From contig OX597814.1 in assembly GCA_951406725.2 (NCBI GenBank), positions 163,618,001 through 163,682,000 on the forward strand: a stretch of DNA of 64,000 bases. The letters run 5' to 3'. Numbering within the stretch: position 1 is the first letter of the stretch; each line of letters opens with the position of its first letter. Below, piece by piece: positions 4,396 to 64,000 of this stretch. The DNA is from Octopus vulgaris (Eukaryota). The position numbers and the translations under genes are program-made. The notes beneath the pieces were generated by a model. It ran no database searches. It saw only the letters and a list, made by a program, of their open reading frames with translations, and was not told the DNA's origin.

Positions 4396-4601
4396 CTATT
4401 CATAATGTTTTCATATATGGGAGAATTATCTCAACTCTGTAGAAGTGGTGAAATAGGAAGTTGCGTGTGCACACACACACAGACTTTTACACACATATGC
4501 ACATGCAGAACTACATTCATGCACATACATACACAAGCACATGTGTGTATCAGTTACTTTCAAATCAATTTGTAAATAATTTCAATCTATTTTTCTTGCA
4601 G

Positions 4602-4940
4602 CTGCTGGAACCCCAGCTGACAGGGAAACCAATTTCCTGGAAAAGAGTCGAGTTTTTTAAAAATGAATTGGCAACAACTGTTGAACACTTAGACAAAGCT
4701 TTTCTCCAAGACGGACCATATTTAGCTGGTCAGAAAAAAATATCAATCTGTGATATTCTTGGTGCTTGTGAACTGATGCAGCTCAATGCTGTTCATGAAG
4801 AAGCTTGTTATGAAAGTAACAGTAATGTTAACTCTTGGATGCAACGAGTGAAGAAAGATTTGTCCCCGCATTTTGATGAAGCTCACAAAATTGTTTATAG
4901 AGCAAGAGAAGTATTTGGTGAATCTAAAAGTAAGCTATAA
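4602..4940 (+). CDS. GSTT: Glutathione S-transferase theta class, last coding exon
   Basis: Acceptor ttcttgcag, phase 0 and in frame with the previous exon. GST C-domain FLQDGPYLAGQKKISICDILGACELMQ...WMQRVK; stop TAA at 4938-4940. Confidence 0.9.
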   Translation: MLEPQLTGKPISWKRVEFFKNELATTVEHLDKAFLQDGPYLAGQKKISICDILGACELMQLNAVHEEACYESNSNVNSWMQRVKKDLSPHFDEAHKIVYRAREVFGESKSKL

Positions 4941-9680: not shown

Positions 9681-10642
9681 AAGTGTTCTTTGCTTTCCTT
9701 CTTTTTTTTTTATATATTCCACCCTTTAGAAATGTTGGGGGTCATGTGAAAATAGTTTTTGATGTGCTTTCCATATCATAACTATTATGAAAGGCTTGCA
9801 CTTCTACCAGCCATTTATACACATTTTTAAACACTCTGAACAAATGGAGCTGCAACAAATGGAAGAGGGAGTTCTTTATAAGATTAAGATATTGGGCAAC
9901 CAATGAGATTTCCATATTCAGCAATATTTCAATGGGCTCTTCATAGCTTGTTACAAAAGCAGATTGGTGTTCATGGTGCATAAGATTAACAATTGCAGAA
10001 AGTACTTTCACTGGAAAAATAATATAACTTTTCTCACTAATACAAATTTTGAAAAACCTTTAGCAGCAAAGAACACAGAATAAATAGATTAATAAATTTA
10101 AAATGTTATTTCATAAAAGAATTTTTTAATCATGCAGTTAGTATTTACATTTATTTAAATAGAAGAAGCTAAACTAGAAATATTTTGTAAAATCTGCAAT
10201 CATCAGTAAGCATACATATATATATAAATATGTATGCATATATACATATTTGTGTACATATGTATGTGTGTGTTTACAACTATAGAAGAGTCAGTTCATG
10301 TTACTAAAAATTTAAAAGTCACTCAAAAGCACACAAGATGGCTGAATTCATTACATCTGCCTCATCCAATGTGGAAAAAGAAAAAACAAAAAAGAAAAAT
10401 AGATTTATACATTGCATTTTTTCTTTGAAACAGATTAAACTAATGTTTTCTAAGTACTTTGGATTTTAGTTTTTCTCGACATATTTATATCATGGTATCT
10501 TCAAAATTTTATGCAACGTTTTTTCAGAATGTGTTTCTCTAATAAATAATCAGTTTTCTTTTTTTTCTTTTTAATTTTCTGTTTCTCTTTCATCAACTAA
10601 TCTTTCTTCTACTGACCTTTTGTGTTGCTTTTAAAGCCACAA

Positions 10643-10858
10643 TCAAAGATAATTTTGATTGATGGAGAGTTTTGTTGATTTTGTCATTTTCATAGTGAAA
10701 TTTACTGGTGAATATCCCATTGTTAGTTGATTTAAAGAAATCACATCTATGTAATCACTGCAGTAGTCTACCAACAAATCTTCGGGAATGTCACCACTGA
10801 TTTCTATCATTACATCAGGGAAATGTTGTTTCAAACTTTCAGCATATTTTTTAGCAAC
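10643..10858 (-). CDS. QPRT: QPRT-like gene, exon 3 (last)
   Basis: Acceptor tttcag|GTT. VAKKYAESLKQHFPDVMIEISGDI...IDVISLNQLT aligns to human LKAQFPSVAVEASGGI...IDVISMGMLT; stop TGA. Confidence 0.88.
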   Translation of the reverse strand, partial: VAKKYAESLKQHFPDVMIEISGDIPEDLLVDYCSDYIDVISLNQLTMGYSPVNFTMKMTKSTKLSINQNYL

Positions 10859-10959
10859 CTGAAACACAAACAAACCAAAAGTCAAAAATAAATCCAAAAT
10901 AGAAATTATATAGTTTCTTGATGTATGTTTACTTTTTATCTTTATCATATTTGTTACAA

Positions 10960-11640
10960 GCTGACAGATGCAAGAACATCAAAGATAGAAAAGGAATTCC
11001 AGAGTCTGACATTCTGAGGAACATGAATTGGACATAGGAGTTCATGTGGGGCCAGGTTGAAGAGACACAATTTGGGTCACCAGTGGAAAGAGTGAGTCAG
11101 GAGTGCTTGAAAAGAAAAGTGATCACTGTAAAATCGCTAATAAAACATAGAGAGGAGATAGTATACTTGTGGGATGCCAACCAGGTGAGTAGCTGGCAGA
11201 ACTGGCAGAAACTTGTGGGATGCCAATCAGGTGAGTAAGGCGGTGAGCTGGCAGAAACGTTAGCACGCCAGGCAAAATGCTAAGCGGTTTTTTGTCTGCC
11301 GCTATGTTCTGAGCTCAAATTCCGCTGAGGTCGACTTTGCCTTTCATCCTTTCGGGGTCGATTAAATAAGTACCAGTTGCGCACTGGGGTCGATATAATC
11401 GACTTAATCCGTTTGTCTGTCTCTGGTTGTCACCTCTGTGTGTGGCCCCTTGTGGACAGTAAAGAAACCAGGTGAGTAGCTCTTTTTCAAGGGTGGAAGT
11501 TGGAGGTGGAGTGAGGGTGAACTAAAATACCTGTATATGTAGCAGCTGCACCATCTCATGCACAGAAACTGCGCTCCATTGTGGATCTTGCCTGAGCTTT
11601 GTGGAGGCTTAGTTGTCATTGGTCCTGAAATGGGTTCTAA
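10960..11640 (-). mobile_element. Old CR1/jockey-like LINE fragment interrupted by a SINE
   Basis: Minus-strand remnant resembling the KAQxRxTMEY RT-thumb motif near 11570-11600; heavily decayed. Confidence 0.4.
11238..11466 (+). mobile_element. SINE (Meta/MESC-like core) with TSD
   Basis: Full head and core; AA(C/T)CAGGTGAGTA on both sides. Confidence 0.85.
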
Positions 11641-12631
11641 AGAGGAAGACTAGTACTCAGTGATGCAGTCATTGTTGCATCAACTCTCCTGATGAAACAG
11701 ACCTCCAACCAAATGCAATTCAATTATGACCATTCATCCCTTTTTATATTAAAACTATATATTCAAACCAAGCACACATCTAAAACCTCTTTTCAGTGCA
11801 ATTATAATTACTTCATTAATTCATTTCATTATCTGTCTGTGTAAAGACAGTTTCGTCTTCCATGTCGTATGTTTAGAGAAAAAAACTTAAGATCCCTTCG
11901 CTCAACCCAACTCTACCCCCTTTCTCCCTATCTTTCATGCTCATTTATTATTGTCCTTTATTCGTTCATTTATCTAATTTTGTCACAGTTTTGCTGACTG
12001 AAAACTGTCAGTTATAGCTCTAGTTTAGAATTCAAATGCCCAATTCTATCTCATTATTATCATAATGTTCTGCGTCATGGGGATTAGAAAAGAACTTTAT
12101 CTTAATTATGAAAAATAAAAGAAGTATAAAAAAAAAGCGCATTATTTATGGGATGACCCAATAGTTATATTTGGAATACCTTTAATTGTATGTCTCCTCA
12201 GTCAGGGCTGACTTGACCTAAGGAACAACAATAACAACTTCATTCAAAGTTATCTTATTTCTGAAAGCATTTCCTATTGCCATAGACTAAGAGGTTAGCT
12301 TGCAACATGTCAAGTCTGTGACCTAGTTCTTATTTCTAATTTCTTTAAATATTTAATTGGAAAAGACATGATTATCTCAGCTTGAATTTCTCTACTTTGC
12401 TATTCCGAAGATGTCATATAGGTATATTCAAAGCTCTGACCTCTCCACTACTTCCCTCCTCTTCCTCTTACACAGATTTAAACCTTAACACCACAAGGCA
12501 CCATTTTCTCTCACCACAGAACTTAAAGTTTGACTGCTGACTACTTGACCATCATTAATTTCAGCATGTTTCCTGATATGCCTCAGTCTTCAGGCCTGCT
12601 TGAGGAGGTGCCTTTCCAGTGGCAGTGGTAA

Positions 12632-12869
12632 ATAATAATAATAATAATAATAAACATTGTGTACAGTGCTCAGGTGCACTACAACTCATTGAAAGTGTAT
12701 ATATAATCAGGTGTAGTTTCGACGGATTTCGGAAAGCATGAGGGCCTTAAAGGATGCAGTGTCATGGCAGTCAACAACTGACGCAGGCAGTTTATTCCAT
12801 GCTTCAGCAACTCTGAGTGTGAAGAAATGTTTCCGAAAGTCATGGGAGCTGTGTTGTTTTCTGACTTTA
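12632..12869 (-). mobile_element. CR1-like LINE 3' fragment with (ATT)n tail
   Basis: Reverse complement of the 3' end seen at 13500-13845. Confidence 0.8.
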
Positions 12870-13336
12870 GGAAAGAGTTTTATTGCTTGACTTAAAAATT
12901 ACAGCTAAATCTTCATGTAAAGTATGAAATATAAAAGGCATTGGAGAGTTTTTTTATAACTCTATAGGTTATGGATCACACTAAGGCCTTTTATATTCAA
13001 TGCATTATAAGTACTTCTGTATGAAATAGCTGTAAAATGTTAAATATATATATATAAAAAATCATCATTGTTGTTAGTGATGGAAGTGTTGGCAGCATTG
13101 TTGTCCTCTTCCACATCATCAACACCACCATTGAAAACAATGACAACAGCAACAACAATAAGAACCACAACAACAATAACAATAGCAATATTTCTTGTTA
13201 GCTTTTCTGTGATGGCATAGTTTGGAAGGTTTTACTGAGGCAGTGGCTTATGATTCAATGCCTTCCTATAGCCAACTAACTCTTTTAGTCACCTCTTACA
13301 GCACAGGAATAGGATGATGTGCCTATTCTAAAATAA

Positions 13337-13802
13337 AGTGCCATATTCTGAATGCCTTACTTCCCTGGGCATGGATACATTGAAACTCCAGCGTCTGGCA
13401 GCTGACTTGGCAGACACCCATAAAATTATTAACCATCTTACTAACAATAACTCTGAGCACCTTTTCAAACTCCACCTGTCTAACACCCCCGGACATGTTT
13501 ACAAAGTCAGAAAACAGCACAGCTCCCATGACTTTCGGAAACATTTTTTCATGCTAAGAGTTGCTGAAGTATGGAACAAACTGCCGGCATCAGTTGTTAG
13601 TTGTCGGAGCACTGCATCCTTCAAAACTTCCAAGCTTCCTGAGATTCGCCAACACTACACTTGATTTTCTTCCCTCTATACACACGCAAGCATGTATCTG
13701 ACTCATACACTGTCCACGTCCCAGACATTTGTACATTACTGCATATGCTTTATATGCACTTTTGACAAGTTGTGGTGCACCTGAGTACTGTATACAATAA
13801 TT

Positions 13803-13839
<37 letters not shown>

Positions 13840-13845
13840 CATCAT
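13337..13845 (+). mobile_element. CR1-like LINE 3' fragment
   Basis: GHVYKVRKQHSSHDFRKHFFMLRVAEVWNKLP (CR1-type C-terminus), 3' UTR and (ATT)n tail. Confidence 0.85.
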
Positions 13846-13911
13846 TATATAATAATCAAACATAAAAGAAATTGAAGAATTTGGAAATATAATTAAAACT
13901 TTATTTCAAAC

Positions 13912-14043
13912 CTCTGCTGTTGGGTTTTCAAATAATATAACATCACAACCAGCATTAGCTGCTTCTAAAGCATCTTCAAGATTTCTGCATTCTACTTCAA
14001 TTTTCATGGAAAACCCACTAACAAGCTTAGCATCTTTCACAGC
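13912..14043 (-). CDS. QPRT: QPRT-like gene, exon 2 (132 bp; absent from the ORF track)
   Basis: Acceptor aaaacag|GCT and donor GAG|gtttga, phase 0/0. [44 protein letters not shown] is colinear with the 44-aa human segment AVRAARQAADFTLKVEVEC...DLVLLDNFKPE. Confidence 0.92.
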
Positions 14044-14649
14044 CTGTTTTCCATATTCAAAAACAAATAAAAAATAATACAGAGCAGAGTAAGTACAGAC
14101 GTAGCAAATTCCACAAAATAAGAATATAATAATTTAGCAATAACTAATAACTTATACATAAAAAAAAATGAATGTAAAAAATTTAATGATTTATATGGGA
14201 AAACAAACAAGGAAAACATATGAAAACTGTTTATTTCTGATTAAATGAAAATAATTAGAGAAATAAAATATATTTAAAGTAAGTAGGCATGTACTGTATA
14301 CAAGAAACAAGATGGAAGTGAGTCTCAGCTAGACTCCTTGAGGTTAAGGAACTTACAAATCCTGGGTAGATAACAAAGACGGAGAAAGTGGATTCAGTAA
14401 ATTATTTGCAGAGAAATGGATTAAGTAACAAAGGTAGTTAGAGAATGTGATACATTTATCAGGTTTAACCTAGTCATGAACAACACAACTGTGACATTTA
14501 TCTGTACACATGCGTTACAGTCAGAGGTGGCAGATGAACAGAAAGACTACTTCTGTGTGCTCCTCCCGCAGATAACCTTGAGTAATGAATGGTAGCAATG
14601 TCTTATTGTATTTGGTGATTTTAATGGACTTATATATATATATATCAAA

Positions 14650-15062
14650 TTCGATGATTGGCATCCGTGCTAGTGTAGCACTAAGAGCACCACCCGAGTC
14701 TGATCGTTGCCAGAGCAGCTAACTGGCGTTTGTACCGGTGGCACGTAAAAAGCACCATTTGAGCATGATCCTTACCAGTGTCACCTTACTAGCATTTTTG
14801 CCGGGGTGCAGGTGACACGTAAAAAAAACCCACGATGTTTTCATAGCCGTAGCCAGTACTGCCTGACTGGCCCTTGTCCTGGTGGCATGTAAAAGCACTC
14901 ACTACACTCTCGGAGTAGTTGGCATTAGGAAGGGCATCCAGCTGTAGAAACTCTGCCAGATCAAGATTGGAGCCTGGTTCAGTCATCTGGTTCACCAGAC
15001 CTCAGTCAAAATTGTCCAACCCATGCTAGCATGGAAAGCGGATGGTAAACGATGATGATGAA
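14650..15062 (+). mobile_element. Retroposon of the same family as 6045-6405
   Basis: AAAAGCACC units and GCATGGAAAGCGGA...GATGATGATG tail. Confidence 0.7.
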
Positions 15063-15552
15063 CAACGATATAACCTTTTACATGAAGTCTGAAGCAAAGT
15101 AATTTAAATTTTATAAAGAAAGTCAAGTTATAAATCATTGGTTAATGTTTTCTGATATCTAAGATGTATTTTCTAGTTTAGCCTGTTAAGCATGTTCAGC
15201 TTTAGCAGTTATCACAGTATGAGATCACTATTAATAATTTTTATCTCTTCTTTACAGTTGCCAAGCAATCATGGAATGTATTCCCTGCATTATGTTTATT
15301 ACAATTAATACACTTGTCACAGCTTAACAATCACCAAATTAATGAATATTTTACAGTCAGTCTTTCTTTCATGCAACATAGTCTTTAGAATTATTTCTGT
15401 TGTTTCTTTAACCACAGCAGTTCAGAATATTTATATATCAATAAATTATTTGCCTAAAGTATTTAGTGGATATTTTAAAAGATTGCTAAAAGTAGACAGC
15501 TAAGACAAGTTTGTTTTCATAGCTTTATGTTCTTCCAAGCTTCCTGCTGCTC

Positions 15553-15753
15553 TCTTTACTCTTTTACTTGTTTCAGTCATTTGACTGTGGCCATGCTGGG
15601 GCACCACCTTTAGTCAAGCAAATCGACACCAGGACTTATTCTTTGTAAGCCTAGTACTTATTCTATCAGTCTCTTCTGCTGAACCACTAAGCTACTGGGA
15701 CGTAAACACACCGCCATTGGTTGTCGAGCGATGTTGGGGGGGACAAACACATC

Positions 15754-15798
<45 letters not shown>

Positions 15799-15805
15799 AC
15801 ACACA

Positions 15806-15841
<36 letters not shown>

Positions 15842-15872
15842 TATACATACATATATACGACAGGCTTCTTTC
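15553..15872 (-). mobile_element. tRNA-derived SINE, 3' half plus microsatellite linker
   Basis: Reverse complement of the tail of the SINE at 44568-44985; contains (CA)n and (CATA)n. Confidence 0.8.
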
Positions 15873-16139
15873 TACTGATTCTGCTAAACTATATCGAAGC
15901 AGGATCCATCAAACTGACTGACATGAATATCTAAGCTATTCTGAAAATGAAATGGTGGTGTTGAAAGCATTAAATAGTTAAGTTCTCATTTTCTTTTTCT
16001 CATTTAAAGAAGTAACATGCGCCTTTTAAAAAAATGTATTAATGACATAATGTTGAAGCTAGAATGGATGTGGATTATTTCGATATACTTTCTTTGTCTT
16101 CTTTTACTGGTTTCAGTCATTGAACTGCAGTCATGCAGG

Positions 16140-16735
16140 TGGAAGGCAAAACTCACCTCACTGCATCACCGGTCTGGAACCCCTATCTTGCCCAGGATAT
16201 CAATCGTCTGGAAGCCGTTCTGCGACGTGCAACCAAAAGAATACCCTCCATCGGGCATTTGCCATATTCTGAATGCCTTACTTCCCTGGGCATGGATATA
16301 TTGAAACTCCGACGTCTGGCAGCTGACTTGGCAGACACCCATAAAATTATCAACCATCGTACAAACAATAACTCTGAGCACCTTTTCAAACTCCACCCAT
16401 CTAACACCCGTGGACATATTTACAAAGTCAGAAAACAGCAGAGCTCCCATGACTTCAGGAAACATTTTTTCACGCTGAGAGTTGCTGAAGCATGGAACAA
16501 ACTGCCGGCATCAGTTGTTAGTTGTCAGAGCACTGCATCCTTCAAAACTTCCATGCTTCCTGAGATTCGCCAACACTACACCTGATTTTCTCCCCTCCAT
16601 ACACACACAAACATGTATCTGACTCATGCATTGTTCGCTTTCCAGACATTTGTACATTACTGCATATACTCTATACGCACTTTCGGACAAGTTGTGGTGC
16701 ACCTGAGCACTGTATACAATAATTTCATTATTATT
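16140..16735 (+). mobile_element. CR1-like LINE 3' fragment
   Basis: ASPVWNPYLAQDINRLEAVLRRATKRIP...RVAEAWNKLP; (ATT)n tail. Confidence 0.88.
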
Positions 16736-17397
16736 ACAGGTAGAGAAAATATTACTGGACACTAGTAATAATAAGGCAGCACACCACAGTATAAATAGCA
16801 GATTACAATTGCAGAGATTAAAGTACTGAGCTGAAATCTTTTCATGAATAAAACATGAAGTGGACTAGTAACTTCCTGTTTAAGAGCAGAAATGTTTATC
16901 ATCCACTTCACACTCATTTTGAATGGTATACTTAACCAGGTACCTAGTTAAACATCACCACCTAGTTCTTGGGTTTTTAGTTCACTTTGTTGCAAGCATT
17001 CAGGCCATGGCTTTGGTTTCAGTTTAACTTCTTCCCTTCTTCTTATCAATCATTGGTGCCCTGAAAAAATTTTTTAAAAAAGAGGGTGATGGGTATGGCC
17101 CTTCTATCCCTGACTAAGCAGTGAAAAAAGAAAAAGATAACTATGATTAATTGCAACACATTTTGCACCATCAGGTAAAAGGTAACATGTTAGATAAGTA
17201 AACATCTCTCCCATCACTATTATGCTGTAACTGATTTGTTTAGGAGGCAAAGACTGTGAAACTATAACTTATCATTAGTGTGTTAGTTTGTGTGTGTATG
17301 TAAGGTCACGAAGATATCCGAAGTGAATTGTCGAGTTGTCACGGAAACAACTGAGGTCTTGCTATGGTTTTGTCGAGTTAAAACAAAGGAACGCTCA

Positions 17398-17590
17398 ACG
17401 GGCTTCTTTCAGTTTCCACCTACCAAATCCACTCACAAGGCTTTGGTCAGCCCGAGGCTATAGTAGAAGACACTTACCCAAGGTGCCACACAATGGGACT
17501 GAACCTGGAACCATGTGGTTGGGAAGCAAGCTTCTTATTTCATTACTGCCCACAAGGGAAAGCAAGCTTCTTACCACACAGCCACTTCTA
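17398..17590 (-). mobile_element. tRNA-derived SINE head
   Basis: Reverse complement of the GGAGTGGCTGTGTGGTAAG...GGTTCAGTCCCA head. Confidence 0.75.
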
Positions 17591-18436
17591 TATGACACTA
17601 ACAACTCTGTCACTTCACCATATCAATGAATCTATTAAACATAGTGATTAATGAAATCCTGTGGTCTATGAAAACTGTAATCATATCAACATTTTCTATT
17701 TTAATATGATCATGAGAATATATTATATTATCACACTGTGATAGCTGGATTAGTTAGAGATTATAATGTTTGAGCTGATAAGTTGTTGGTCTCTGGGTAA
17801 TAGTTTCATGAGTTCATATTCTTTAACCAGACACTTGTAGTTGCTAACCAACATAATGGAGTCCTAAGCTGAAGAGTTTCTTTCATTTTTTACTTCTTCC
17901 AGTCACTGAACTGCAGTCATGCCTCTCCATATTCAATCTCCAACATCATTCTTATTGTTCTACCCCACTTTCTTCACCATCCTAATACATTTCAAACAAG
18001 GGATTCCATCATATCTCTTAATACCTAAAAAACTCCACCATCACACTTCTGTAATGCTAGCCATCACTCCAACTTCACTTATGATTGACATACATCACTC
18101 TCAATGAGAGAGAGAGAGAGAGAGAGGGCACCTAACTCTAAGACTATCCATTGCCTCTCTCTCTCTCTTTTCCTACCAAACATGTAATTGCCATGACTGT
18201 CTCTTTCCCATTAACTTCTGTCATTACTATCTTCCTTCCATTACTCCTCCCAGTATTATCCCTTCCGTTAATCCCACTTCAACCATCCTCTCACCCCAAC
18301 ACTACATGTGATTTGCAAGCATGTATCTGACTCATACACTGTTCATTTCCCAGATATTTGTACATTACTGCATATGCTTTATACACACTTTTGACAAGTT
18401 GTGGTGCACCTGAGCACTGTATACAATAATTTCATG

Positions 18437-18474
<38 letters not shown>

Positions 18475-19119
18475 CATTATTATTATAAACAAAAATTTAG
18501 TCCAAAATAAATATAAAGAAACACTAACAAATAGACTAAGAAGACAATGAACATTTGAGATATCAGTAACAAACGAGTAATTAGGTCACTAAAAATCATT
18601 AATACTTCACTGGAATTGGCAATGTTACTAATTTATTTTAGCCAGTCTCCTTCTATTTCTTTAACCCCTCATCTCATTTTAACTCTGCTGAGTTTCTCTC
18701 TGTTCTATCTACTCCCATTCTTTTCTGAACAACAACAGCAGTTGTTTTTTGTTTTTGTTTTGTTTTTTTTCCAACAAGGTTTTCTACTCAACAAAGTCAA
18801 CAGGTTTCTTCAGAGGTAAGTTACATTCTTGTTGTACTGGAAGTTCATAGTAGTTTGACATCAAGTATGTTTGTTTTGTGTAAAGAAAAATAAAGGCGTT
18901 AATCATTGTGCATTATTTATAGTCTCTAAAGTCTAAAGATAAACAAAGGAGTTAGGAACAAGAAGGATTGGTAAAGTGTGTTCCTGTGCATGCATGTACA
19001 CATGTGTGTGCTTATGTGTGTGAGTGTGTATGTTGATAACTAGTATATTAACTAGCCTTACACACTTTGCTGTAATGCTACAACAAAAACAACAACAACA
19101 ACAACAAAAACAGTAATAA

Positions 19120-19319
19120 TAATCCTTTCAACTACAGGTACTTTAGGAAGGAACTAGTTGATTGCATCAACCCCAGTACTCAACTGGTACTTAATTTATC
19201 GATCCTGAAAGGATGAAGGCAAAGTTGACCTTGGCAGAATTTGAACTCAGAACATAGTGACAGGTGAAAAACTGCTAAGCATTACACCTGGAGTGTTAAT
19301 TATTCTAATAATAATAAAC

Positions 19320-19354
<35 letters not shown>

Positions 19355-19582
19355 TAACAATAATAATAATTCTCTATAATTTTTGGCACAAGACCAGCAC
19401 TTTTCTGGGGAGGAGTAAGTTAGTTACATCAAACCCAGTGCTCACTTGCTTAAATTGACCATGAAAAAATGAAAGGCAAAGTTGACCTAGGTGAAATTTG
19501 AACCTAGAACGTAAAGGCAGATGAATTAATACCATTAAGCATTTTGCTTAGGGAGCTAATGATTCTGCCAGTTCGCTATCTT
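19120..19582 (-). mobile_element. Two decayed SINEs among (AAT)n tracts
   Basis: Meta/MESC-like core with most CpGs decayed. Confidence 0.7.
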
Positions 19583-21397
19583 AATAATAATAATAATAAT
19601 AATGATGATGATGATGATGATAATAATAAAAATGATAATAATAATAATGGTTTCAAATTTTGGCACATGGCCAGCAATTTCGTGGGAGCAGGTATGTCAA
19701 TTACATTTTGCTCGCATATATATATATATATATATATAATACTGGTGAATCCTAAGACCCAGTTTTCAGTGAGACAACTGGTTAATAATACAATAACTAA
19801 AATAATTAGGAGCCAACTACTGAACCTCTAAGCAGTTGCTCAGCCTGCTAGCTATAGCAACCAAGTTTGTACTCAAATCACATACGGCTGTCTTAAAAAA
19901 AGGATAAATTGGATAATGTGGGCCTAGATACAGAAGAAAAGAGAGAAAAAAATTGGAATGGTCTTGGCTTGAACAACTTTGATTATAGGTTTGATTTATT
20001 AGGGCTGACCAGGGGCTAACAAAATATAGGATAATGGATATTTACAAAATCAGCAACAACTACAAGTAAAATTGCAAAATGAGGGCCATACATGATCAGC
20101 ATATCTGCTAGAGATAGCAGCCAAATCTCTCCCAAATTACTCTCTGCTGTTTTGAAAAGGAGAAGGACATATATTAAGTAATGTAATTCTAGAAAACTTC
20201 AGAAAATCTGGGATGGCCATGACTGGAATGCCTTTAATTGTAGGTTTGTTTGATCAGAGTTTCACACAGAATTAAATAATAATAACAACTAGAACAGTAA
20301 TTTTGACGGTAACAGCAGCAACAGTATCTATAGAATAAATATCTACATGAGTGGCACACTAGCAATCTTTTTGCCTTCACTTACTAATAGATAGATGGAA
20401 CAAACTTCTCTTTGAAGAGAACAAATCAAATAGCATTGAAATATTAAATTACTGGAGTTAAGTTGCAGACTCCAGGCTATGGACAAACATTCTCTAAATT
20501 CATACATATAATATTGGTAGCATGTCCAGACCTATGCTTAACCACCCTATATTATGCCCTCAAGTATATACAGAAGCTTCTATGTAATATCATAACCTGC
20601 TAATGATTGCAGTCAAATGGAACTCATATCACATGTCCTGCTATCTTTAAAAGAAAGAAGAACCTACTGAATAATAAAGTTAGATATGTTATGAAGGAAA
20701 AAAAAAAAGGATGGTCATGGCTAGAATGCTTTTGGGTTTGGTTTGTTTAATCAGAATTCATCTGATGCTAAACAACAGCAACTACAACAATAAAAATAAC
20801 AACAACCTCAAACTGCTCTGCATCTCACTTTTAAATTATATTGTATTTCCTTTCTTTAGTATTCCTCTATAATGAGCTATGTTACACTCTACTATATTAC
20901 ATTAACCATCACATGGTTCAGTCCTTTTGCAGTGCCTCAATGACCCTGGAGGTTATGCCAATAGTGCACAAACTCCTGGTTGTGACTTCTGTACTGGACA
21001 GGATAGATGCCAGGCTAATACAGACCACCTCTCTCTAGAGGTAAAAATGAGTTTGCATAGGGTCAACACCCCTACCTATGAAAAAAAAAACAAAACCAAG
21101 TTACAGAAGCATCAACAATAATTCAAAACCAACAAGAACTAGAAGAGGAAGGCTTTCCATGAGGGAATAATAGTTTTAGTGTACCAAAATCTGAAAGGAT
21201 GCTTTAAGGAAAAGGCAGGGATCCAACTGGAGACAAGTAGAAAAGACAACCCAGGGTCGAGAACCTATGGAGAAGAGTGGTCAATAGCCTATGCCCCATA
21301 GGGAACAAAGTGTTTAAATAAATAATATTACATTACACAACATTATACAACATCCCATTACATTGCGTTCTGTAACACTGCAATACATTACATAACA

Positions 21398-21613
21398 TTG
21401 GTTTCAAATTTTGGCACAAGATCAGCAAGTTCGGGGAAGGGGACTAGTCGATTACATCGAACCCAGTACTCAACTGGTAATTATTTTATCAACCCTGGAA
21501 GGATGAAGGACAAAGTTAACTTCAGCAGAATTTGAACTCAGGATGTAAGTACAAATGAAATGTCACTAAGCACTTTGTTTGGTGAGCTAATGATTCTACC
21601 AGCTCACCACCTT
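21398..21613 (-). mobile_element. SINE (Meta/MESC-like core)
   Basis: Full-length decayed copy. Confidence 0.75.
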
Positions 21614-22137
21614 ATATACATTACATAATATTAGACTACACTACATAATATAATTACACTTTACTCCACTACATCACATAGCACTACATAACTTTGTTAT
21701 ATTCTACACTACAATTTAGTACAGTATGCTACACTATATCATATTGTATTAAGAAAAGAAAAGCTACCAGCTTGGGTGGTCATTTATTTCCTCTAGAGCA
21801 AGAAATCTGTTCCTATCTCTCTATTATACTCTTGTCTTTCAATGTCTAGCATAAACTACCACCATTAATGCTACAACCCCACTCAATCAAAGGGTCTAGT
21901 CTTGTGAGCAATTAGGCAGTCTCATTAGTATTGATGGGGAGGGGTACAAAAAAAGCAACCAGTATACTCTGTAAAGTGGCGGTGCTAGGAAGAGCATCCA
22001 GTCATAGAAACCATGTCAAAACAGACATAGAATCTTGACACAGTCCTCTGATCTGTATGACCCTGACAAACCATCCAACCTATTCCAGTATGGAATATGG
22101 ATATTAAATGATGTTGGTGATGATGTACAGCTTCTTA

Positions 22138-22359
22138 TTTCTTTATTGCCCACAAGGGGCTAAACATAGATGGGACAAACAAAGGGATTAAGTCGTTTAG
22201 ATCGACCCCAGTCCATAACTGGTACTTAATTTATCGACCCCAAAAGGATGAAAGGCAAAGTCGACCTCGGCGGAATTTGAACTCAGAATGTAACGGCAGA
22301 CGAAATACAGCTAAACATTTCGCCCGGTATGCTAACGTTTCTGCCAACTCGCAGCCTTA
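22138..22359 (-). mobile_element. Young SINE with 15-bp TSD
   Basis: TSD ATGTACAGCTTCTTA at 22123-22137 and 22360-22374. Confidence 0.9.
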
Positions 22360-23450
22360 ATGTACAGCTTCTTACTACAAACTCAATAACAACTTCAACA
22401 AAAGCAATTCCAGCAATAAAAACAATTACATCAACAGCAGCAACTGAATGGCATCAGTAGCTACAACTAAAAAGGCAAATTATTTTAAAAACACCAGTTT
22501 GTGTTGTCCAAGAGAGACTTAATCAACCAGTTTATATTCTATATTCCTTGTCAACATCATAAAATTTCTAAATGATACCACAAAAGCCTTATACCATTTT
22601 ATGCATCAGTATTCAAAAGGTGTATTTGTCTTTTAACTGATACCCAGTTTTTTTTTGTTTTTTTTTTCTTGGCTCTGGCTGGTAAAATAATTTCTTTTCA
22701 GCTAGTCTCAAGGAAATTATTCAAAGGGACAAAAACTTTATTCCTTTACAGGTTTCAGTTATTGAACAGCAGCTGTGCTAGGAAAGCAGCTGTGCTAGGA
22801 AAGCAGCTTCAGCAGCTTTAATTGATCATATTGATTACAGTACTTAATTCAATCTGGTATTTTTTATTTTTATTTTGAATTCTGTTGAACCAGTAAATTA
22901 AGGGAGAGATTATAAACAAAAACAGTTTTTTAGACTGGTGTAAATATAACCACATATACAGATGGATACACACAATCATCATCATTATCGTCATCACCAG
23001 CAGCAGCACCACCAAAAACAACAAGATTATCTTTTTACATCTACTTTCAATACTGGTGAGCTGCTACTCCCATAGACTGTGGTGTTCATAAATGTTATTT
23101 GGCTAATTACTTCACTTCTACTGCCAGATGCCATTTCTATTGCCAGCCACTATACAGAGAGTACTGGGTGCATTTTCAAGGGGCAGTTGAATAGTCATTG
23201 GAGAGACAGAATTATTGGAATCACACAGCCTTCTGCTTTCTCTGCTTATTTGCAATCATTTTACAGAGCGTAGAGAAAGCATTTTTCATGGTATCAACAC
23301 TAGAAAGAATATGTTTACCTGTCCCTCTAAGAGCAGCACAATTTGGAGGTTTTCTCATGGCACCAACACTGGAGGTGGTGTAAAGGTGCTTTGTATACAG
23401 GAAATGAAAAGAATATTTAATATCCTGAGATAGTGGACTGAGGAGGAGAG

Positions 23451-23487
<37 letters not shown>

Positions 23488-23872
23488 AGTCACAAATAGG
23501 TAAGTACCCAAAAATCTGGCTGATGAAACAAAAGAGTAGGCAATAGCTGGAAATATAGATGGCAAACTCTACAAGTTAAAAGACTTAATGACATTCATTA
23601 ATACAGCATCTGATCAAAGTAATCTTTGACATCTTTTAAGACCTTTTGTTTTATGAACATTTTATGGCTGAGAGCAAAGTGAAAAGAAGTGGTATAAATG
23701 TGATAAAGAAATCCCCTAATCTTAAATAATCTGCAATATCTAAAAATCGTCAATAAAATGAAATTGAATTTGGATCTTGTTATTTTTTCTTCTGAGTATT
23801 CCTTCCAAGTATTTCAAATTTTTATAAGATATTTTAAGTTTCTACATGTAACTTCTTTATTATTAATTATAT

Positions 23873-24140
23873 TGAGACCCCCTTCGGTCATGACTGACCA
23901 TGGGATTGCACCTAGAAAGTTACCCTCCCAGGCACAAGTCCGGGCAAGATTGTTTTATGGAAGATCAGCAGTCACCCATGCATACCGGCCTCCCCTCTCC
24001 ACACCACCAGTGTTATCCAAGGGAAAGGCAAAGGCCGATACAGATTGGCACCTGTGACATCGCAACTCATTTCTACAGCTGAGTGAACTGGAGCAACGTG
24101 AAATAAAGTGTCTTGCTCAAGAACACAACAGGCAGCCCGT
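23873..24140 (-). mobile_element. SINE of a further family (related copy on + near 27340-27415)
   Basis: TCTTGAGCAAGACACTTTATTTCACGTTGCTCCAG core on the minus strand; (AAT)-like tail. Confidence 0.6.
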
Positions 24141-25206
24141 GTTGTGTTACATATATATATATTGAATGTAACTTTTGTCCTCAGCATGCAAAAACTACAT
24201 TTAAAAATAAAAAAATAATCTGGTGAAAATTTGAAATGTTTCAAATTCTTGGAAGCAAGTTAACAAGATTACCGATTTTTATTTTTCAGTGAAAGTGCAA
24301 GTTTAGAAATGGTTGAATTTGGCAAACCGAAAGCTGTACAAATCGGGTGGAACTTAATTGGTGATTAATATCTCAGAGGAAAGAATTATCTACTAGAAGA
24401 TATTTACCGTATATCTAGTAATCATAAGAGATATTCAGTCAACTACTACATCTGATGCATCGTTGGAATAATTCATTGGCGTGATGTAATCAACCAATGC
24501 GTTTCGTTTACTTTCACACATAAATCAAGTTTCTTTCAGTTTTATTTTATTGTCGATTATGAATTATTAAAGTTTTATTTAACCTTCATCTATTCATCTT
24601 TCTTTCACTTTATTGTCCATCAAGCGAAAATCCTCGTGCCTGTTGACACCAGCATGTTTTGGACGAAATACTGTTACTGGGGGGGGGGAAGGAAATGTGT
24701 TACTAGCTTATTGATCTGAAAGATGATGACACGTTTGTTTGTGCTAGCTTGTCAGCTGTTAAACAGGTGTTGACAAAAGGGGGCACTATGAATACGATAT
24801 GAGATATTCACCACAATAACATCTTTCGACCATGTCACTATACACACCTCCATTCAACTCAACACAGACTCTTTATAATACGATATATTCAGCTTCTTCA
24901 CAACTACGACGCCAAACTACAATTTCTGATGAAATAACGATGGGAACCTTTAAGGGTCGCATGGTCTGCTAGAAATAGCATCTACATCTCCCTCAGATCA
25001 CATCCTATTGTCTTAAATAAAGAAATGACACAGGAGTTAAGGTAGTACCACATACTCCTAAAAAGACAGGGTGGTCACAGCTGGAATACCTTTGATCATA
25101 GGTCAACTCGATCGAGATTAACCTAAGCTAAACAACAAGAGCAACATAGTTTCGGATAAAGACAAGAAATTGCTTATGGTATTAGGGAAATCACAAGTTT
25201 ACTTAC

Positions 25207-25818
25207 CTTTTGGATACTTCCTGCAGTCCATATATGGTTGTCTCGCAAGATAATCATAGAAGATAAATCGTACCTGTGGGTTGCTAAACCCCCAACAAGA
25301 AGAGAATACTTCTCTACTAGACGGAATCCCGGAGTAGTTCTGCGTGTATCAGCCAGTTTCCCTTTCCAGCCAACCCCTTCAGCTTTCAGGGCCAATTTGC
25401 GGGCCAAAGTCGCTAGTCCACTTGCCCTGCACGCACAGTTGAGGGCTACACGTTCTCCGAGCAACAAGCACCGTACTCTGCCTTTGATAATCGCAACTGT
25501 TTGGACTGGATTCAGGTATGTTCCTTCCGGATAAAGCCATTCAATTTCACACTCCAGCTCTTTAAATACAGCATCTATAAATGGTCTTCCTGCCAAAACA
25601 CCAGCCTGTCTCATGATCAAGGCAGCGGTCACATTTTTCTCCCCTACTACGAACCCACCGAAATCAAAATTTGGCGAATCTTCTTTAATCCATTCTCTGG
25701 CTAAATGTTGTACAGTAACAGGTGATAATGCATGGTAAGTTTCAGGACCCGAAGTAATCCGAGAATGGTTATTATTGTAATGTAAATAGTTCTTCCTTTG
25801 GTCGTAATAAGCAGACAT
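25207..25818 (-). CDS. QPRT: QPRT-like (nicotinate-nucleotide pyrophosphorylase, carboxylating), coding exon 1
   Basis: ATG at 25818 and donor AAG|gtaagt. Motifs WIKEDSP, GVLAGRPF, LLLGERVALN, TRRTTPGFRLVEKY, HRYDL, RDNH. Spliced product is 204+44+71=319 aa. Confidence 0.95.
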
Positions 25819-27689
25819 TTTATTCAAAACATATCAGAAACAGAACGTCTTTGCCTTTCCCCTTTATTTTACACTGACCTACAACACACTACAACGCAGG
25901 TTGTTCCGAAGTTGTTCTATCTATGTAGACACCTGCGAAATGGTTGTGTAAAGGCGTGTGTGTGTGCATGCGTATCGTGCTTGTATAGGTGTATTTTGTG
26001 TAGTTTGACTGACACACTGACTGGTACATTATTTATGGAGCGCTCTTTCATAAAACTTCAATAACATACAGAAAGCAGATAATAAAACTTCAATAAGACA
26101 GTAGCAAATAAATCTTACTAGAGGTTTTATACATACAAGTACACTCGCTGAGTGAAATAATTTTGTTTCATTGGAGAATTTCTCGACTGTCCATCAAGCA
26201 TTCCTTTAATTACATGTTGTTTTTCCTGAGGTAATCTAGTTTGTTTTCTCAAAAACATAAATCACTCCATCTGAGATAAATAGACAGACAGATAGATAGA
26301 TAGAGAGGGGGGGAGAAAGAGAGGAGGGGGCGAGGGGGTTGGAATTGTGTCAGTGTTGCTATTATATATTGCTAAGAGACAATAGTTTAAAAAAAATTTT
26401 TTTTTATTAAATACTGATATTAATATCTCTGTTGGTAGGAATAAGCTCAATTAGTGTGTAGTCGGACAAGTGGATTTCCCTCTACGCATATGGTTTTTAT
26501 AAATTATATCTATAGGTACTTTTAATGATCAAAGAAACAGGTTTGTAATGAATTCGACAACCACAAAACTTGCTTATTTATCACTGTCTATTGGTGCTGT
26601 GTGTATGTGTGCGTGGTTGTGTGTATGTACGTATGTAGGTGTGTGTATATATGAATAAATGTACGTATGTATGTCTATGTATATGTACATATGCGTCTAC
26701 ACATGTATTTGCGTGCGTATGTATCTATGTGGATGTATGTATGAGTGTGCATGTATGTATGTACCAACCTTCTTCAATATCCATCTTCTTGCTCTTTTCT
26801 CTGCCTTTTTCTTTCTCTTCACTTTCCTAGTCTAAGTATCGTTTTGAGATACTAAAGAAAACTTATATTTGTGCTTCCAGACACCATACAGCGGAAAAGT
26901 TCCCTGCTGTTTGTACCTGACAAACAAGTGGCTATGATGGTATGATTTATTACAGAAACAACTCTGGCTTACATGACAAATAGTTGAAAGTTTATGCGTC
27001 TCTCTCTCTCATGGTACTCTTCACTATGTTAACATAGAACTAAATGACTTAGTTCAAGCGAATGGAGAAGTGCAGTTTACTCCTGAAGCATTGTATAAGT
27101 ATTTCTAATATAGGCACTCAGCCAGAAGTTTGAGATGAATGCATAATCAATTAAGCTGACCCAAGTGGAATAAAAGGCAAAGTTGACCTCAGAATGCAAA
27201 AGGCTGTAATTGGATGCAAGTATGGCTGTGTGGTTAAGAAGTTTGTTTCACAACTATGTTGTTTTATATTCAATCCAGTTAAGGTATGCAGCTTAGTGGT
27301 ATTTGACTCGTGACTAAGGTTGTGTGTTTGATTCCTGGCAGTGTATCTTGTCCTTGAGCAAGATGCTTTATTTCACATTGCCCCAGTCCATTCAGCTGGT
27401 AAAAATGAGTTGTACTCTCTTAAGCACCACCACCTGGCCCTCAGATTTTAGTAGAGTCTACTCTAGGGTAAACATTTGGGCCAGGTCTTTGTTGAGGATA
27501 ACTTCCTCACTTTCATCTTCCAATCTCAAAGACTTTCAAAAGGTTCATGGATGCTGCTGTTCCTCCTCTCACTAAGTCATTAACCCTTCTGTTACCATAC
27601 TTTCATTAAAATATACTGCCTTTATTTCACTCAATTTTCAAAAATAATGAAGAACTTACAAAAGTAAGTTTGTTATTATTAAGCTGAAG

Positions 27690-31858: not shown

Positions 31859-33154
31859 TTATTTATCATGCTTTTCAGATCTGTGTTTATGTTTCTTGTG
31901 TTTTTTTGATTTTTTGTGTTTCTGTTTGTGTTTAAGGCCAGCATCTTCAGTGTCTTCTGTATCATCATCTGCACTGAGTGGTCTTTTTAAGCTATATCTA
32001 CTTTCGGGTAACACATAATCACTGATTACGGTAGTTTCTCTAGTTTGTTCGCATCCACGACTCGTGTCTTCTCTCGCTTCTTGCATAACTTTTATTGAAG
32101 ACTTACTTTCTGTCAAAGATACATTATTTGATGCAGAGCTGATTTCAGAGTCAATTTTATCACTTTTCCTTGATTCTTTTCTTATATCAGATGTATTTTT
32201 ATCCCTGTGTTTATAATCAGAACTTCCTCTTGAACTCTTTTCGCCGTCTCTATGCCTTGCATCGTGTTTTTCGTGACTACTTTTTTTGTTGTCCGATTTA
32301 GATTTTCTTGACCGATCACGATCGTCTTCCCGCCTACTACTGGAATGAGAACGTCTATCGCTTCTCTTTGATGACTGGACTTCAGCAGATTCGACTTCAG
32401 ACGAATCTTTCAACAACGTCTGTAGCAATTCTACCTGATTATGAATAACTTCTCGTATGATCTCTGTATAAGTTTTTTTCGTAATGTGGACATTTTTAGC
32501 ACGGTACGATTGCCTTCGGCGTTTATAGTCGCGCATCGCAGCCCATTTCTCTGTTTCGGAGGAAGGTTCATTAAGCTCTCTACCTTTGGCAGCCTTCTTG
32601 ATGAGAGTTTCGAAGTCTGTAGTAAGAAGAGTATCTTCTGGTAAGGACTGCATGCGCTGAAATTCTTTAGCGACTCGAACCACATAGTCATATATTGCTC
32701 GTCTCTCATCTACACTGTAATCTCTCTGTTGAATTTCAAGTGTCTGTGGTACTTCCCTTTCATAATTTACCGACATCGTGCCATTATTTCGATGAAACTC
32801 CTTCAGTATTGATTGTAAGTTACTTTTTTCTAGTTTAATTGTCATAATATTAGTTTTCTCGTAAAAGAAACTTGAAGATCCAGGAACATTAGCAAGTTCA
32901 TCAGATGTATATCCAAGTTGTAACCACTTACAGCATTGTTCATGTTTCTCCAGCGAATTTCTTGGCAGTCTGTGGTTAACATTGTATGAACACGGAACTT
33001 TTTCTGAGTCTTGTTCAAAAAAATGCTGAGGCGTCCATTGCACCCTTTCAAAAAGTTTACCCAAATCATCTTCACATCCCTTTAAATATTCATCTAAGTC
33101 AGTTATATAAGTTTTACGTTTCTTTAACAGATCTTCGTTTACAGTAGTAACCAT
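31859..33154 (-). CDS. SNRNP48: U11/U12 snRNP 48 kDa protein, single-exon ORF (431 aa from the first ATG)
   Basis: CHHC zinc finger CSYNVNHRLPRNSLEKHEQCC and hallmark RDYKRRRQSYRAKNVHITKKTYTEIIREVI. An in-frame TGA at 33217-33215 closes the frame upstream; first ATG at 33154. Confidence 0.93.
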   Translation of the reverse strand: MVTTVNEDLLKKRKTYITDLDEYLKGCEDDLGKLFERVQWTPQHFFEQDSEKVPCSYNVNHRLPRNSLEKHEQCCKWLQLGYTSDELANVPGSSSFFYEKTNIMTIKLEKSNLQSILKEFHRNNGTMSVNYEREVPQTLEIQQRDYSVDERRAIYDYVVRVAKEFQRMQSLPEDTLLTTDFETLIKKAAKGRELNEPSSETEKWAAMRDYKRRRQSYRAKNVHITKKTYTEIIREVIHNQVELLQTLLKDSSEVESAEVQSSKRSDRRSHSSSRREDDRDRSRKSKSDNKKSSHEKHDARHRDGEKSSRGSSDYKHRDKNTSDIRKESRKSDKIDSEISSASNNVSLTESKSSIKVMQEAREDTSRGCEQTRETTVISDYVLPESRYSLKRPLSADDDTEDTEDAGLKHKQKHKKSKKHKKHKHRSEKHDK

Positions 33155-33589
33155 TTCGACATCAGTTTGCAATTTTAATGTAATTAACGCGAGAGTTATT
33201 GCTCTTACCGGTGTTCATACATAATTGTTCCTTCTACAAATTTGAGTGAAGATAGTTTAAGTAAAGACAATTCATGGAAGGTAATAATAAGTGTTTAGTG
33301 AACGAATAGAATCAATGTTTATGTGTTTTGCGATATAGAAAAAATAAATAATTTACTAGAACAGAGAAATTGTTTGCTCGTTCATGAACTAAATTATGTG
33401 CATAGAGATAAAGTTAATGAACAAAATTTCGAAAATTTATTCTTTTAAGCACATTTTTATGCTATGCAACAATGTATGTGTTTTTCTTCTGTGTGTATAA
33501 ATTTACATGCCGGTGTGTATGGATGAAGTGTGTTGAAGTAAATAGTTAGAGAAAAAATAAAATATAAATAAAACTGATAAAGTTCTATA

Positions 33590-62247: not shown

Positions 62248-64000
62248 TTATTGTATGGAAAGTGTTCTGCGTAGGATGTGTGCAGTGCCTAGTAGTGCAA
62301 TTTTCTGTATGTTATATGTGTTTGTAAGTCCTGGTGTTTTTGTTATGTATTTGTCTGAATATTTTTTTATCGTGCCTAATGCACTTACTATGATAGGAAT
62401 TGTTTCTGTTTTCAGGTTCCACATTCTAGTTACCTCTATTTCCAGGTCTTTGTATTTTGAGAGTTTCTCCATTTCTTTTAGAGACACGTTGTCATCTGCC
62501 GGTATTGATACATCAATTAGAAAGCATTTTTTTTCTTCATGATCTCTGACAACTATATCTGGTCTGTTGGTCTTAATTTCTCTATCTGTGTGTATCGGCA
62601 TATCCCAGAGTATGGTTGCTTTCTCGTTTTCTGTGACCTTTTCTGGTGTGTGCCTATACCATCTTTTTTCTGTTGTTATTCCATAATGTTGGCATTGCTT
62701 CCAATGTATGTAGGTTCCAACTCTGTCATGTCTTTGAATATATTCCTTCTTAGCCAGGACTGGGCAGCTAGAGATAATATGATTTATTGTTTCTTGTCCA
62801 TCTCCACATATTCTGCAGTTACTTGTAATATTTCTTTTCATTACATGCTTTTGGTAATTTCTGGTGGGGAGGCTTTGGTCTTGTGCTGCAATTAAAAATC
62901 CCTCTGTTTCTGCTTTGAGTCCTGAGCTTCTCAACCATTGCTGGGATTTTTCTTTGTCTATTTCTTTTGCGTTTAGTTTAGTGCAGTATTTACCATGAAG
63001 GGGCTTTTCTTGCCATCGTTTTATCATGGCTCGTTGCTGTTCTATTTTTAGTTTGGATTTCATTTGTTTTATAGCTTTTGTTGTTTCTTCATCATCTTCT
63101 TCTTCTTCTTTGTGTTTATTAGGTGGTATGATTTCTTGTTTGTATTTGTCAGCTTCCTTAAATACTGAGAACAGTTTTTTGTTTTGCTCGTGTTTTGCTG
63201 CTATCTGGATCAGTTTTCCTTCCTTCTGAAGTAGGTATTTTTGCAGTCCTATGGTGGTTATTTTATAGTAGTTTTCCAGCTGTATAAGGCCTCTACCACC
63301 TTCTATACGTTGTATATATAGTCTTTCTATGTCAGATTTTGGGTGATGCATCCTAGATCCTGTCAGTATTTTTCTTGTTTTCCTATCTATTTTGGACAGT
63401 TCATTTCGTGTCCAGTTAAGGATATTGTAGCTGTAACTTATAACTGGGACAGCTAAAGTGTTGATACCTATTATCTTGTTTTTAGCATTGAGCTCTGTTT
63501 TTAGTATTGATCTAACTCGTCTATAATATTCTTTTTTTATTTTCTCTTTCATTTGTGTGTGTTGTGTCTTATCTAGTTCATGGATTCCTAAGTATTTGTA
63601 AGTTTGGCTTTGGTCTAATTCTTTTATTTCATTAGTTTTATCTAGTGTGATGTTGTTACTCTTAACTAGTTTTCCTCTTTTCATGGTTACTTTGGCGCAT
63701 TTTTCTAATCCAAATTTCATATCTATTTCTTTGGTAAATCCATGAACTGTCTTTAATAGTGTTTCCAGCTGTTTGTCATTTGCAGCGTATAGTTTTAGGT
63801 CATCCATATATAAAAGGTGGCTGATCGTTTTGCCGTAACATTTATATCCGCATCCAGTTCTATTTAGCATATCAGATAGAGGTGACAGTGCCAAGCAGAA
63901 AAGGAGTGGAGAGAGCGTGTCTCCCTGGAATATTCCTCTTCTAATGGGAATGTCTTTGGTTTTCATGAGTCCCTCTTTTGTTTGGAGGTGTAGGACTGTT
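62248..64000 (-). mobile_element. R4/Dong-clade non-LTR retrotransposon, uninterrupted ORF (RT + CCHC + restriction-like endonuclease) running off the window
   Basis: RGIFQGDTLSPLLF, HLLYMDD, CRICG..ETINHIISSC, RHD, RPDIVV..IDVSIP..KLSKY; the frame stays open to 64000. Confidence 0.95.

Follow-up and report, generated by a model that had tools for sequence, protein, structure and literature searches.

An octopus quinolinate phosphoribosyltransferase with altered ligand contacts, a candidate retained pseudoenzyme

Introduction

Two lysines of human quinolinate phosphoribosyltransferase (QPRT) matter to its activity: the K139A protein is dead and K171A is strongly reduced, while K139A still co-precipitates caspase-3 (10.64898/2026.04.01.715697). 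The K172A mutant of the Mycobacterium tuberculosis enzyme has no detectable activity (PMC4065032). The residues that contact the phosphate and the ribose of nicotinate mononucleotide (NaMN) are known from the porcine QPRT-NaMN structure (PMC3633916), and the kynurenine pathway is reported to be truncated in Cephalopoda (bioRxiv 10.64898/2026.06.05.730449). Here we describe the QPRT gene of Octopus vulgaris, which lies in a 64,000-nucleotide stretch of contig OX597814.1 (assembly GCA_951406725.2, positions 163,618,001 to 163,682,000 of the forward strand), hereafter the window. An initial annotation, made from the DNA letters, had described a QPRT-like gene with a systematically rewired active site; our analysis suggests a single, conserved orthologue that has probably lost its catalytic role.

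Results

The core of the octopus protein aligns gap-free to human QPRT with an offset of 21, and human numbering is used below unless octopus residues are named. All five codon changes listed in the initial annotation are present, namely K139R (octopus R160, AGA at 25341-25339), K171R (R192, CGA at 25245-25243), D222E (E243, GAA at 13929-13927), G250D (D271, GAC at 10792-10790) and G270N (N291, AAT at 10732-10730). The alignment adds two more, Q274M (10720-10718) and M169I (25251-25249). R102, R138, H160, R161, E201, N223 and G249 are retained, which agrees with the earlier statement that the equivalents of R102, R138, H160/R161 and E201 are kept.

In order to ask how unusual these changes are, we compared the protein with 117 other full-length homologues (205 proteins less 10 cephalopod-clade rows and 78 partial or gappy rows), and counted a column as conserved if it was at least 95% conserved among them. 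Ligand contacts were taken from published work (twelve residues from PMC3633916, R102 from PMC5517448 and M169 from PMC4726147). Six of the 13 conserved contacts are changed in octopus (K139R, M169I, K171R, D222E, G250D and Q274M) as against 8 among the 76 conserved columns that are not contacts (Fisher p = 0.005), the contact list having been compiled after an alignment of the octopus protein had been inspected. The concentration of changes at ligand contacts that had been proposed from the sequence is thus supported. Among the other homologues 116 of 117 carry no change at any of the 13 contacts, and K139, M169, K171, D222 and Q274 are invariant in all 117. In a more distant set of 147 representatives (164 aligned domains), the confidently aligned rows have K139R in 0/143, K171R in 3/145, D222E in 1/111, G250D in 2/105 and Q274M in 3/90. 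At position 169, Leu occurs in 24/145 of the distant rows, so M169I is a mild change.

Sorted by ligand, four of the six residues that bind the NaMN phosphate (G249, G250, G270, K139, N223 and Q274) are changed, as is one of the ribose pair, where E201 is kept and D222 has become Glu; the cationic quinolinate pocket of R102, R138, H160 and R161 is present. The change of SMG to SLN had been counted as a key one. Its codon is as described; the human G270 position itself is variable (of the 117 homologues, 69 have Gly there and 48 have Ser), with Asn in none. Two further candidate lesions were dropped: G136D, which the cephalopod clade has in common, is the bacterial norm (80/80 loci) rather than specific to cephalopods, and the Leu of M220L is the human residue. 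Clustering of changes at ligand contacts within a conserved, spliced gene makes it likely that selection maintains a protein whose catalysis is altered.

Three coding exons on the minus strand, separated by GT-AG introns in phase 0, make up the gene, which encodes 319 residues, identical to the annotated O. vulgaris QPRT CAI9716282.1. Coding exon 1 (25207..25818, minus strand) provides residues 1-204, that is the N-terminal domain and the first half of the barrel, with octopus R123 (human R102), D157 (G136), R159 (R138), R160 (K139), H181/R182, I190 (M169) and R192 (K171); its start codon is the first ATG downstream of an in-frame stop. Coding exon 2 (13912..14043, minus) provides residues 205-248, including E222 (human E201, kept), E243 (D222) and N244 (N223, kept). 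Coding exon 3 (10643..10858, minus) provides residues 249-319 and the stop codon and carries the 5′-phosphate loops, with G270 (human G249, kept), D271 (G250), N291 (G270) and M295 (Q274). Intron 1 (14044..25206, minus, GT-AG) is 11.2 kb long and repeat-rich, and intron 2 (10859..13911, minus, GT-AG) is 3.1 kb. In spliced contigs the 5′ untranslated region (25819..26176, minus) is unbroken with exon 1; these contigs end at 25884, 26006 and 26176 in three runs, positions that cannot fix the true transcript start. The 3′ untranslated region (10400..10642, minus) is likewise drawn from contigs, two of which extend past the compared stretch.

Assembled contigs from three of four sequencing runs, representing three studies, span all three exons with zero differences in the coding sequence, while the fourth run (X16) left exons 1 and 3 uncovered and runs X20 and X22 gave nothing covering exon 1; these three runs were set aside. 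In a further study a contig shows splicing at exon 1, and the two differences that exon 1 has across two related runs are both synonymous. The runs are presumed to be RNA, having no recorded label, and it is the splicing that is evidence of transcription. Since the spliced contigs match the genome, the substitutions are neither assembly errors nor edited away in the majority transcript, and the possibility raised beforehand that reads might lack them did not materialize. The clean open reading frame, canonical splice sites and colinearity with human QPRT claimed at the outset are likewise borne out by the GT-AG introns, the gap-free core and the spliced contigs. The annotation of O. sinensis includes an isoform (X2, P0001) that skips exon 2 and stays in frame, and that of the gastropod Gigantopelta has a comparable one (P0059); none is among the contigs listed for the O. 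vulgaris gene.

One protein search and two family searches of the 2.8-Gb genome detected no QPRT locus but this one. The sole other weak match was a NAPRT exon and, because this was picked up, the search evidently reaches distant relatives. No second cephalopod-named QPRT occurs among the best 120 matches of either protein search. The term paralog used in the initial annotation is therefore unsupported, there being no second, canonical QPRT in the genome searches. In a tree of 47 rows the four octopod proteins group with P0003, a Logan protein 71% identical to octopus QPRT, in a clade with 100/100 support. This is nested in a larger clade of 32 rows (100/97), in which every row that has a name is a mollusc. 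From its placement in the tree we take P0003 to be probably from another cephalopod. The octopus gene is a single QPRT orthologue inside the mollusc QPRT tree, in which the cephalopod stem has a length of 0.67, the octopod stem 0.31 and the tips under 0.05.

The 319-residue frame is the same in four octopod species. Identity to the O. vulgaris protein is 314/319 (98.4%) in O. bimaculoides and 292/319 (91.5%) in Argonauta, as compared with 411/431 (95.4%) and 321/427 (75.2%) for the neighbouring SNRNP48, although a single neighbour is a thin control. Because it is conserved across octopods, and above the neighbouring gene, QPRT is not a decaying pseudogene; the spliced contigs show it to be transcribed, and its protein conservation indicates purifying selection. 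SNRNP48 (U11/U12 48K), the gene that served as control, is a single long open reading frame at window positions 31862-33214 (minus strand) and is fast-evolving. A loss of QPRT in squids, suggested by the single non-octopod cephalopod-like cluster, was rejected: SNRNP48 also has one such cluster, which points to sparse sampling.

All five cephalopod-clade proteins have D250 together with Asn or His at 270, and 20 positions are common to the five and rare elsewhere. To these the octopods add K171R, D222E, Q274M and M169I, whereas K139R is limited to Octopus, Argonauta retaining K139. P0003 retains K139, K171, D222 and Q274 and instead has R161K, M169S and an Asn inserted in the TRK motif. Because the lineages lost different catalytic residues, relaxed catalysis is favoured over one new specificity: piecemeal loss of this kind would fit relaxation on a constrained scaffold, while a shift to one new specificity should have fixed the same residues in every lineage. 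The claim of a systematic rewiring towards one substrate is correspondingly weakened, given that Argonauta keeps K139 and P0003 has different changes.

The QRPTase_N and QRPTase_C domains are both present, and the protein scores 273.8 bits against the NadC equivalog model (cut-off 198.4). A predicted model built with 98 sequences (mean confidence, pLDDT, 86.6) matches human QPRT with a root mean square deviation of 1.5 Å and a TM score by target of 0.96 to 4kwv. The type II phosphoribosyltransferase fold of QPRT is thus predicted to be intact. The N-terminal extension of 30 residues is predicted to be disordered (pLDDT under 50). It is long relative to the human protein, as had been remarked, and within the mollusc range, which runs from 18 to 36 residues in 12 other molluscs.

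We then looked for the other genes of nicotinamide adenine dinucleotide (NAD) synthesis in the octopus genome. Searches gave no match for HAAO, no true match for kynureninase (KYNU) and no match for ASPDH; two weak kynureninase matches (C19 and C5) were rejected, their translations being repeat-like or unrelated. The HAAO result rests on PF06052, which matched 4/5 bacterial genomes as a positive control, TIGR03037 having matched no control genome. As a further positive control TDO was found as 7 exons. Exons of NAPRT, of two NAMPT loci and of NADSYN1 are present, from which it appears that the nicotinamide and nicotinate salvage routes exist. The two NAMPT-like loci are separate and lie on the same chromosome, at C4:164.30 Mb (L014, L017) and C4:100.13 Mb (L015, L016).

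The tryptophan pathway hence appears to be cut below 3-hydroxykynurenine, so the proposed link to ommochrome pigments survives in an indirect form. A squid chromatophore metabolomics paper contained none of the six pathway terms sought in it. The suggested roles of quinolinate sensor and regulatory subunit lose ground, as the searches revealed neither an active QPRT that could serve as partner nor the genes for making quinolinate.

Three other observations concern unrelated sequences. At 4452-4937 (plus strand) of the window a reading frame has a weak match to the glutathione S-transferase C-terminal domain and is probably a last exon, and at 62251-63999 (minus strand) a 583-residue open frame, cut by the window end, resembles the reverse transcriptase of a long interspersed nuclear element. 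Two similar sequences, on C15 (L102) and C25 (L103), one of them in a 716-residue open frame, suggest a retrocopy; from a motif they are presumably GMP-synthase-like.

Discussion

Catalytic residues of octopus QPRT are altered and its fold is, by prediction, retained, the combination that characterizes a pseudoenzyme. We consider it somewhat better than an even chance that this single spliced orthologue has lost its quinolinate phosphoribosyltransferase activity, with the folded protein kept for a non-catalytic role. On such a model cephalopods would first have lost the kynureninase-HAAO branch, so that tryptophan no longer gave quinolinate and NAD came from salvage of nicotinamide and nicotinate. 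In the common cephalopod ancestor G250 would then have become Asp and G270 would have given way to a bulky residue, both in the site for the 5′-phosphate of phosphoribosyl pyrophosphate (PRPP). Released from catalysis, the lineages could have lost further contacts, K171, D222 and Q274 in octopods, K139 in Octopus, and R161, with the insertion in TRK, in P0003. Purifying selection may have preserved what is left of the protein because it binds a partner. By analogy with human QPRT, the leading candidate for this role would be an activity-independent restraint of caspase-3, which is the least certain step of the model.

Several observations weigh against a loss of activity. Several replacements are chemically conservative (K to R, D to E, M to I), and the published mutants considered here carry Ala or Gln whereas octopus has Arg; for this reason, and with half of the pocket kept, a changed ligand or residual activity stays a live option. 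G250 and G270 bind phosphate via backbone nitrogens (PMC3633916), so the effect of the changes there is only inferred, and position 250 is Asn in 14/105 distant homologues. Every one of the five cephalopod-clade proteins retains R102, R138, H160, E201, N223 and G249, as would be expected if the pocket still binds something. The enrichment at contacts is not significant for P0003 (3/13 vs 9/76, p = 0.24). Finally, an exon-wise search is weak on short exons and may have overlooked KYNU and HAAO; with exon-by-exon scoring even NADSYN1, though present, was found as one exon at E = 0.077.

A protein repurposed for another ligand is an unlikely but serious alternative. It might be an enzyme acting on another aromatic carboxylate (for example nicotinate or a kynurenine-derived acid) together with a sugar donor without the 5′-phosphate, or a sensor. 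Such a protein would account for the carboxylate pocket and the E201 and N223 kept in octopods, for the preserved charges (K to R, D to E), for a long stem followed by near stasis, and for the 20 positions shared across the cephalopod clade. In Salmonella, mutation of the lysine that corresponds to K171 reportedly confers activity on nicotinate, a finding attributed to Bello and Grubmeyer (2010). However, the altered residues are unlike between Octopus, Argonauta and P0003, the NAPRT exon makes it probable that nicotinate salvage needs no substitute, and no candidate substrate emerged.

We regard it as rather improbable that the protein still works as a QPRT, perhaps slowly, in spite of the Arg and Glu residues, using quinolinate from the diet or from microbes or belonging to a pathway whose genes the searches overlooked. 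The protein does pass the NadC equivalog cut-off, its substitutions are conservative, the Asp of G136D is what bacteria normally have, and exon-wise searches are of limited sensitivity. Against this stand five residues that are changed here and invariant in every other full-length homologue, the occurrence of five or six contact changes together, and upstream genes that are undetected here and reported lost.

That the gene is a pseudogene in decay, or that a canonical QPRT escaped detection and this one is its paralog, is very unlikely: the stem branch is long and assemblies can be incomplete, but four octopod species share one frame conserved above the neighbouring gene, both exon-1 differences in the two related runs are synonymous, and the protein searches listed no second cephalopod-named QPRT within their 120 best matches. 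Least credible of all is restoration of an active enzyme by A-to-I editing of the transcript, since, heavy as RNA recoding is in cephalopods and editable to Gly or Ser as the codons of D157, D271 and N291 are, K139, M169, K171, D222 and Q274 are unreachable by A-to-G changes and the spliced contigs of three studies, which would drop rare variants, equal the genome.

The favoured model, a retained pseudoenzyme, bears on annotation and physiology alike. In databases the octopus protein is annotated as an active enzyme of NAD synthesis. Were it inactive, octopuses would be unable to turn tryptophan into NAD and would rely on dietary forms of niacin, as reported for insects, and 3-hydroxykynurenine would be left for ommochrome pigment, a point relevant to cephalopod physiology and rearing. 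The debated moonlighting of QPRT would also become testable, since the residues that cephalopod and flatworm proteins still have after losing catalysis should outline the surface used for the non-catalytic function. A new substrate, on the other hand, would mean that a familiar fold has acquired a novel reaction. No degenerate QPRT is described in the titles and abstract openings that we found (for cephalopod, pseudoenzyme, mollusc gene loss and Schistosoma), most subscription journals being outside the search. The QPRT family and the pathway truncation are already known, and the retained, altered enzyme appears to be unremarked in the searchable literature.

Core catalytic positions also deviate in 10 of the 147 distant representatives. 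Five of the ten were identified: three parasitic flatworms, one Blumeria and one partial sawfish protein (K171R only). In the QPRT of the powdery mildew Blumeria graminis (row P0442) K139, D222 and the KDNH motif are lost, and a separate row, P0433, is degenerate too. The trematode and cestode rows P0430, P0436 and P0424/P0473 constitute a candidate second pseudo-QPRT family. In a protein atlas the flatworm protein fell only in generic QPRT clusters, at under 0.9. Flatworms are reported to have lost the whole kynurenine pathway (bioRxiv 10.64898/2026.06.05.730449). The flatworm and cephalopod proteins are apart in the free tree, and a common clade is not rejected (approximately unbiased test, p = 0.335); on taxonomic grounds their degeneration is likely convergent. 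A broader proposal, tentative and on balance doubtful, is that a non-catalytic function of QPRT, caspase-3 restraint for instance, is ancient and important enough for the protein to outlast its pathway, and that cephalopods, parasitic flatworms and perhaps powdery mildew carry repeatedly evolved pseudo-QPRTs annotated as active.

How, then, does the octopus protein compare with described systems? It is like human and porcine QPRT (EC 2.4.2.19; PDB 4kwv, 2jbm, 5ayy and 4i9a) in fold, in its gap-free core and in R102, R138, H160, R161, E201, N223 and G249, and differs from them by K139R, M169I, K171R, D222E, G250D, G270N and Q274M and by a genome in which the source of quinolinate is undetected. 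Human QPRT K139A, in which the same lysine is lost, sets a precedent for an activity-independent role; that protein is an engineered Ala mutant in human cancer cells. ModD (TIGR01334), a bacterial NadC paralog of unknown function, likewise has a QPRT fold apart from true NadC, but the octopus protein is not a member (56.4 against a cut-off of 178.85).

The flatworm QPRT-domain proteins of Dicrocoelium (CAH8449879.1), Calicophoron (CAL8092355.1) and Mesocestoides (VDD74806.1) resemble the octopus protein in keeping the domain with altered contacts, sharing with it R171 in two cases, D250 in one and E222 in one. They are far more eroded, however, most contacts being gone, R102, H160 and K139 among them, and show 31-34% identity; they are 512-577 residues long, end in a zinc ribbon that follows a long low-complexity tail, and are annotated as QPRT or unnamed. 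Ostariophysi fish and insects are reported to have lost the route that makes NAD de novo from tryptophan (bioRxiv 10.64898/2026.06.05.730449), as octopus probably has too. In Ostariophysi, though, the QPRT gene itself is reported lost and among insects it is reported as regained only in one fly family, whereas in octopus the gene has been kept and is conserved.

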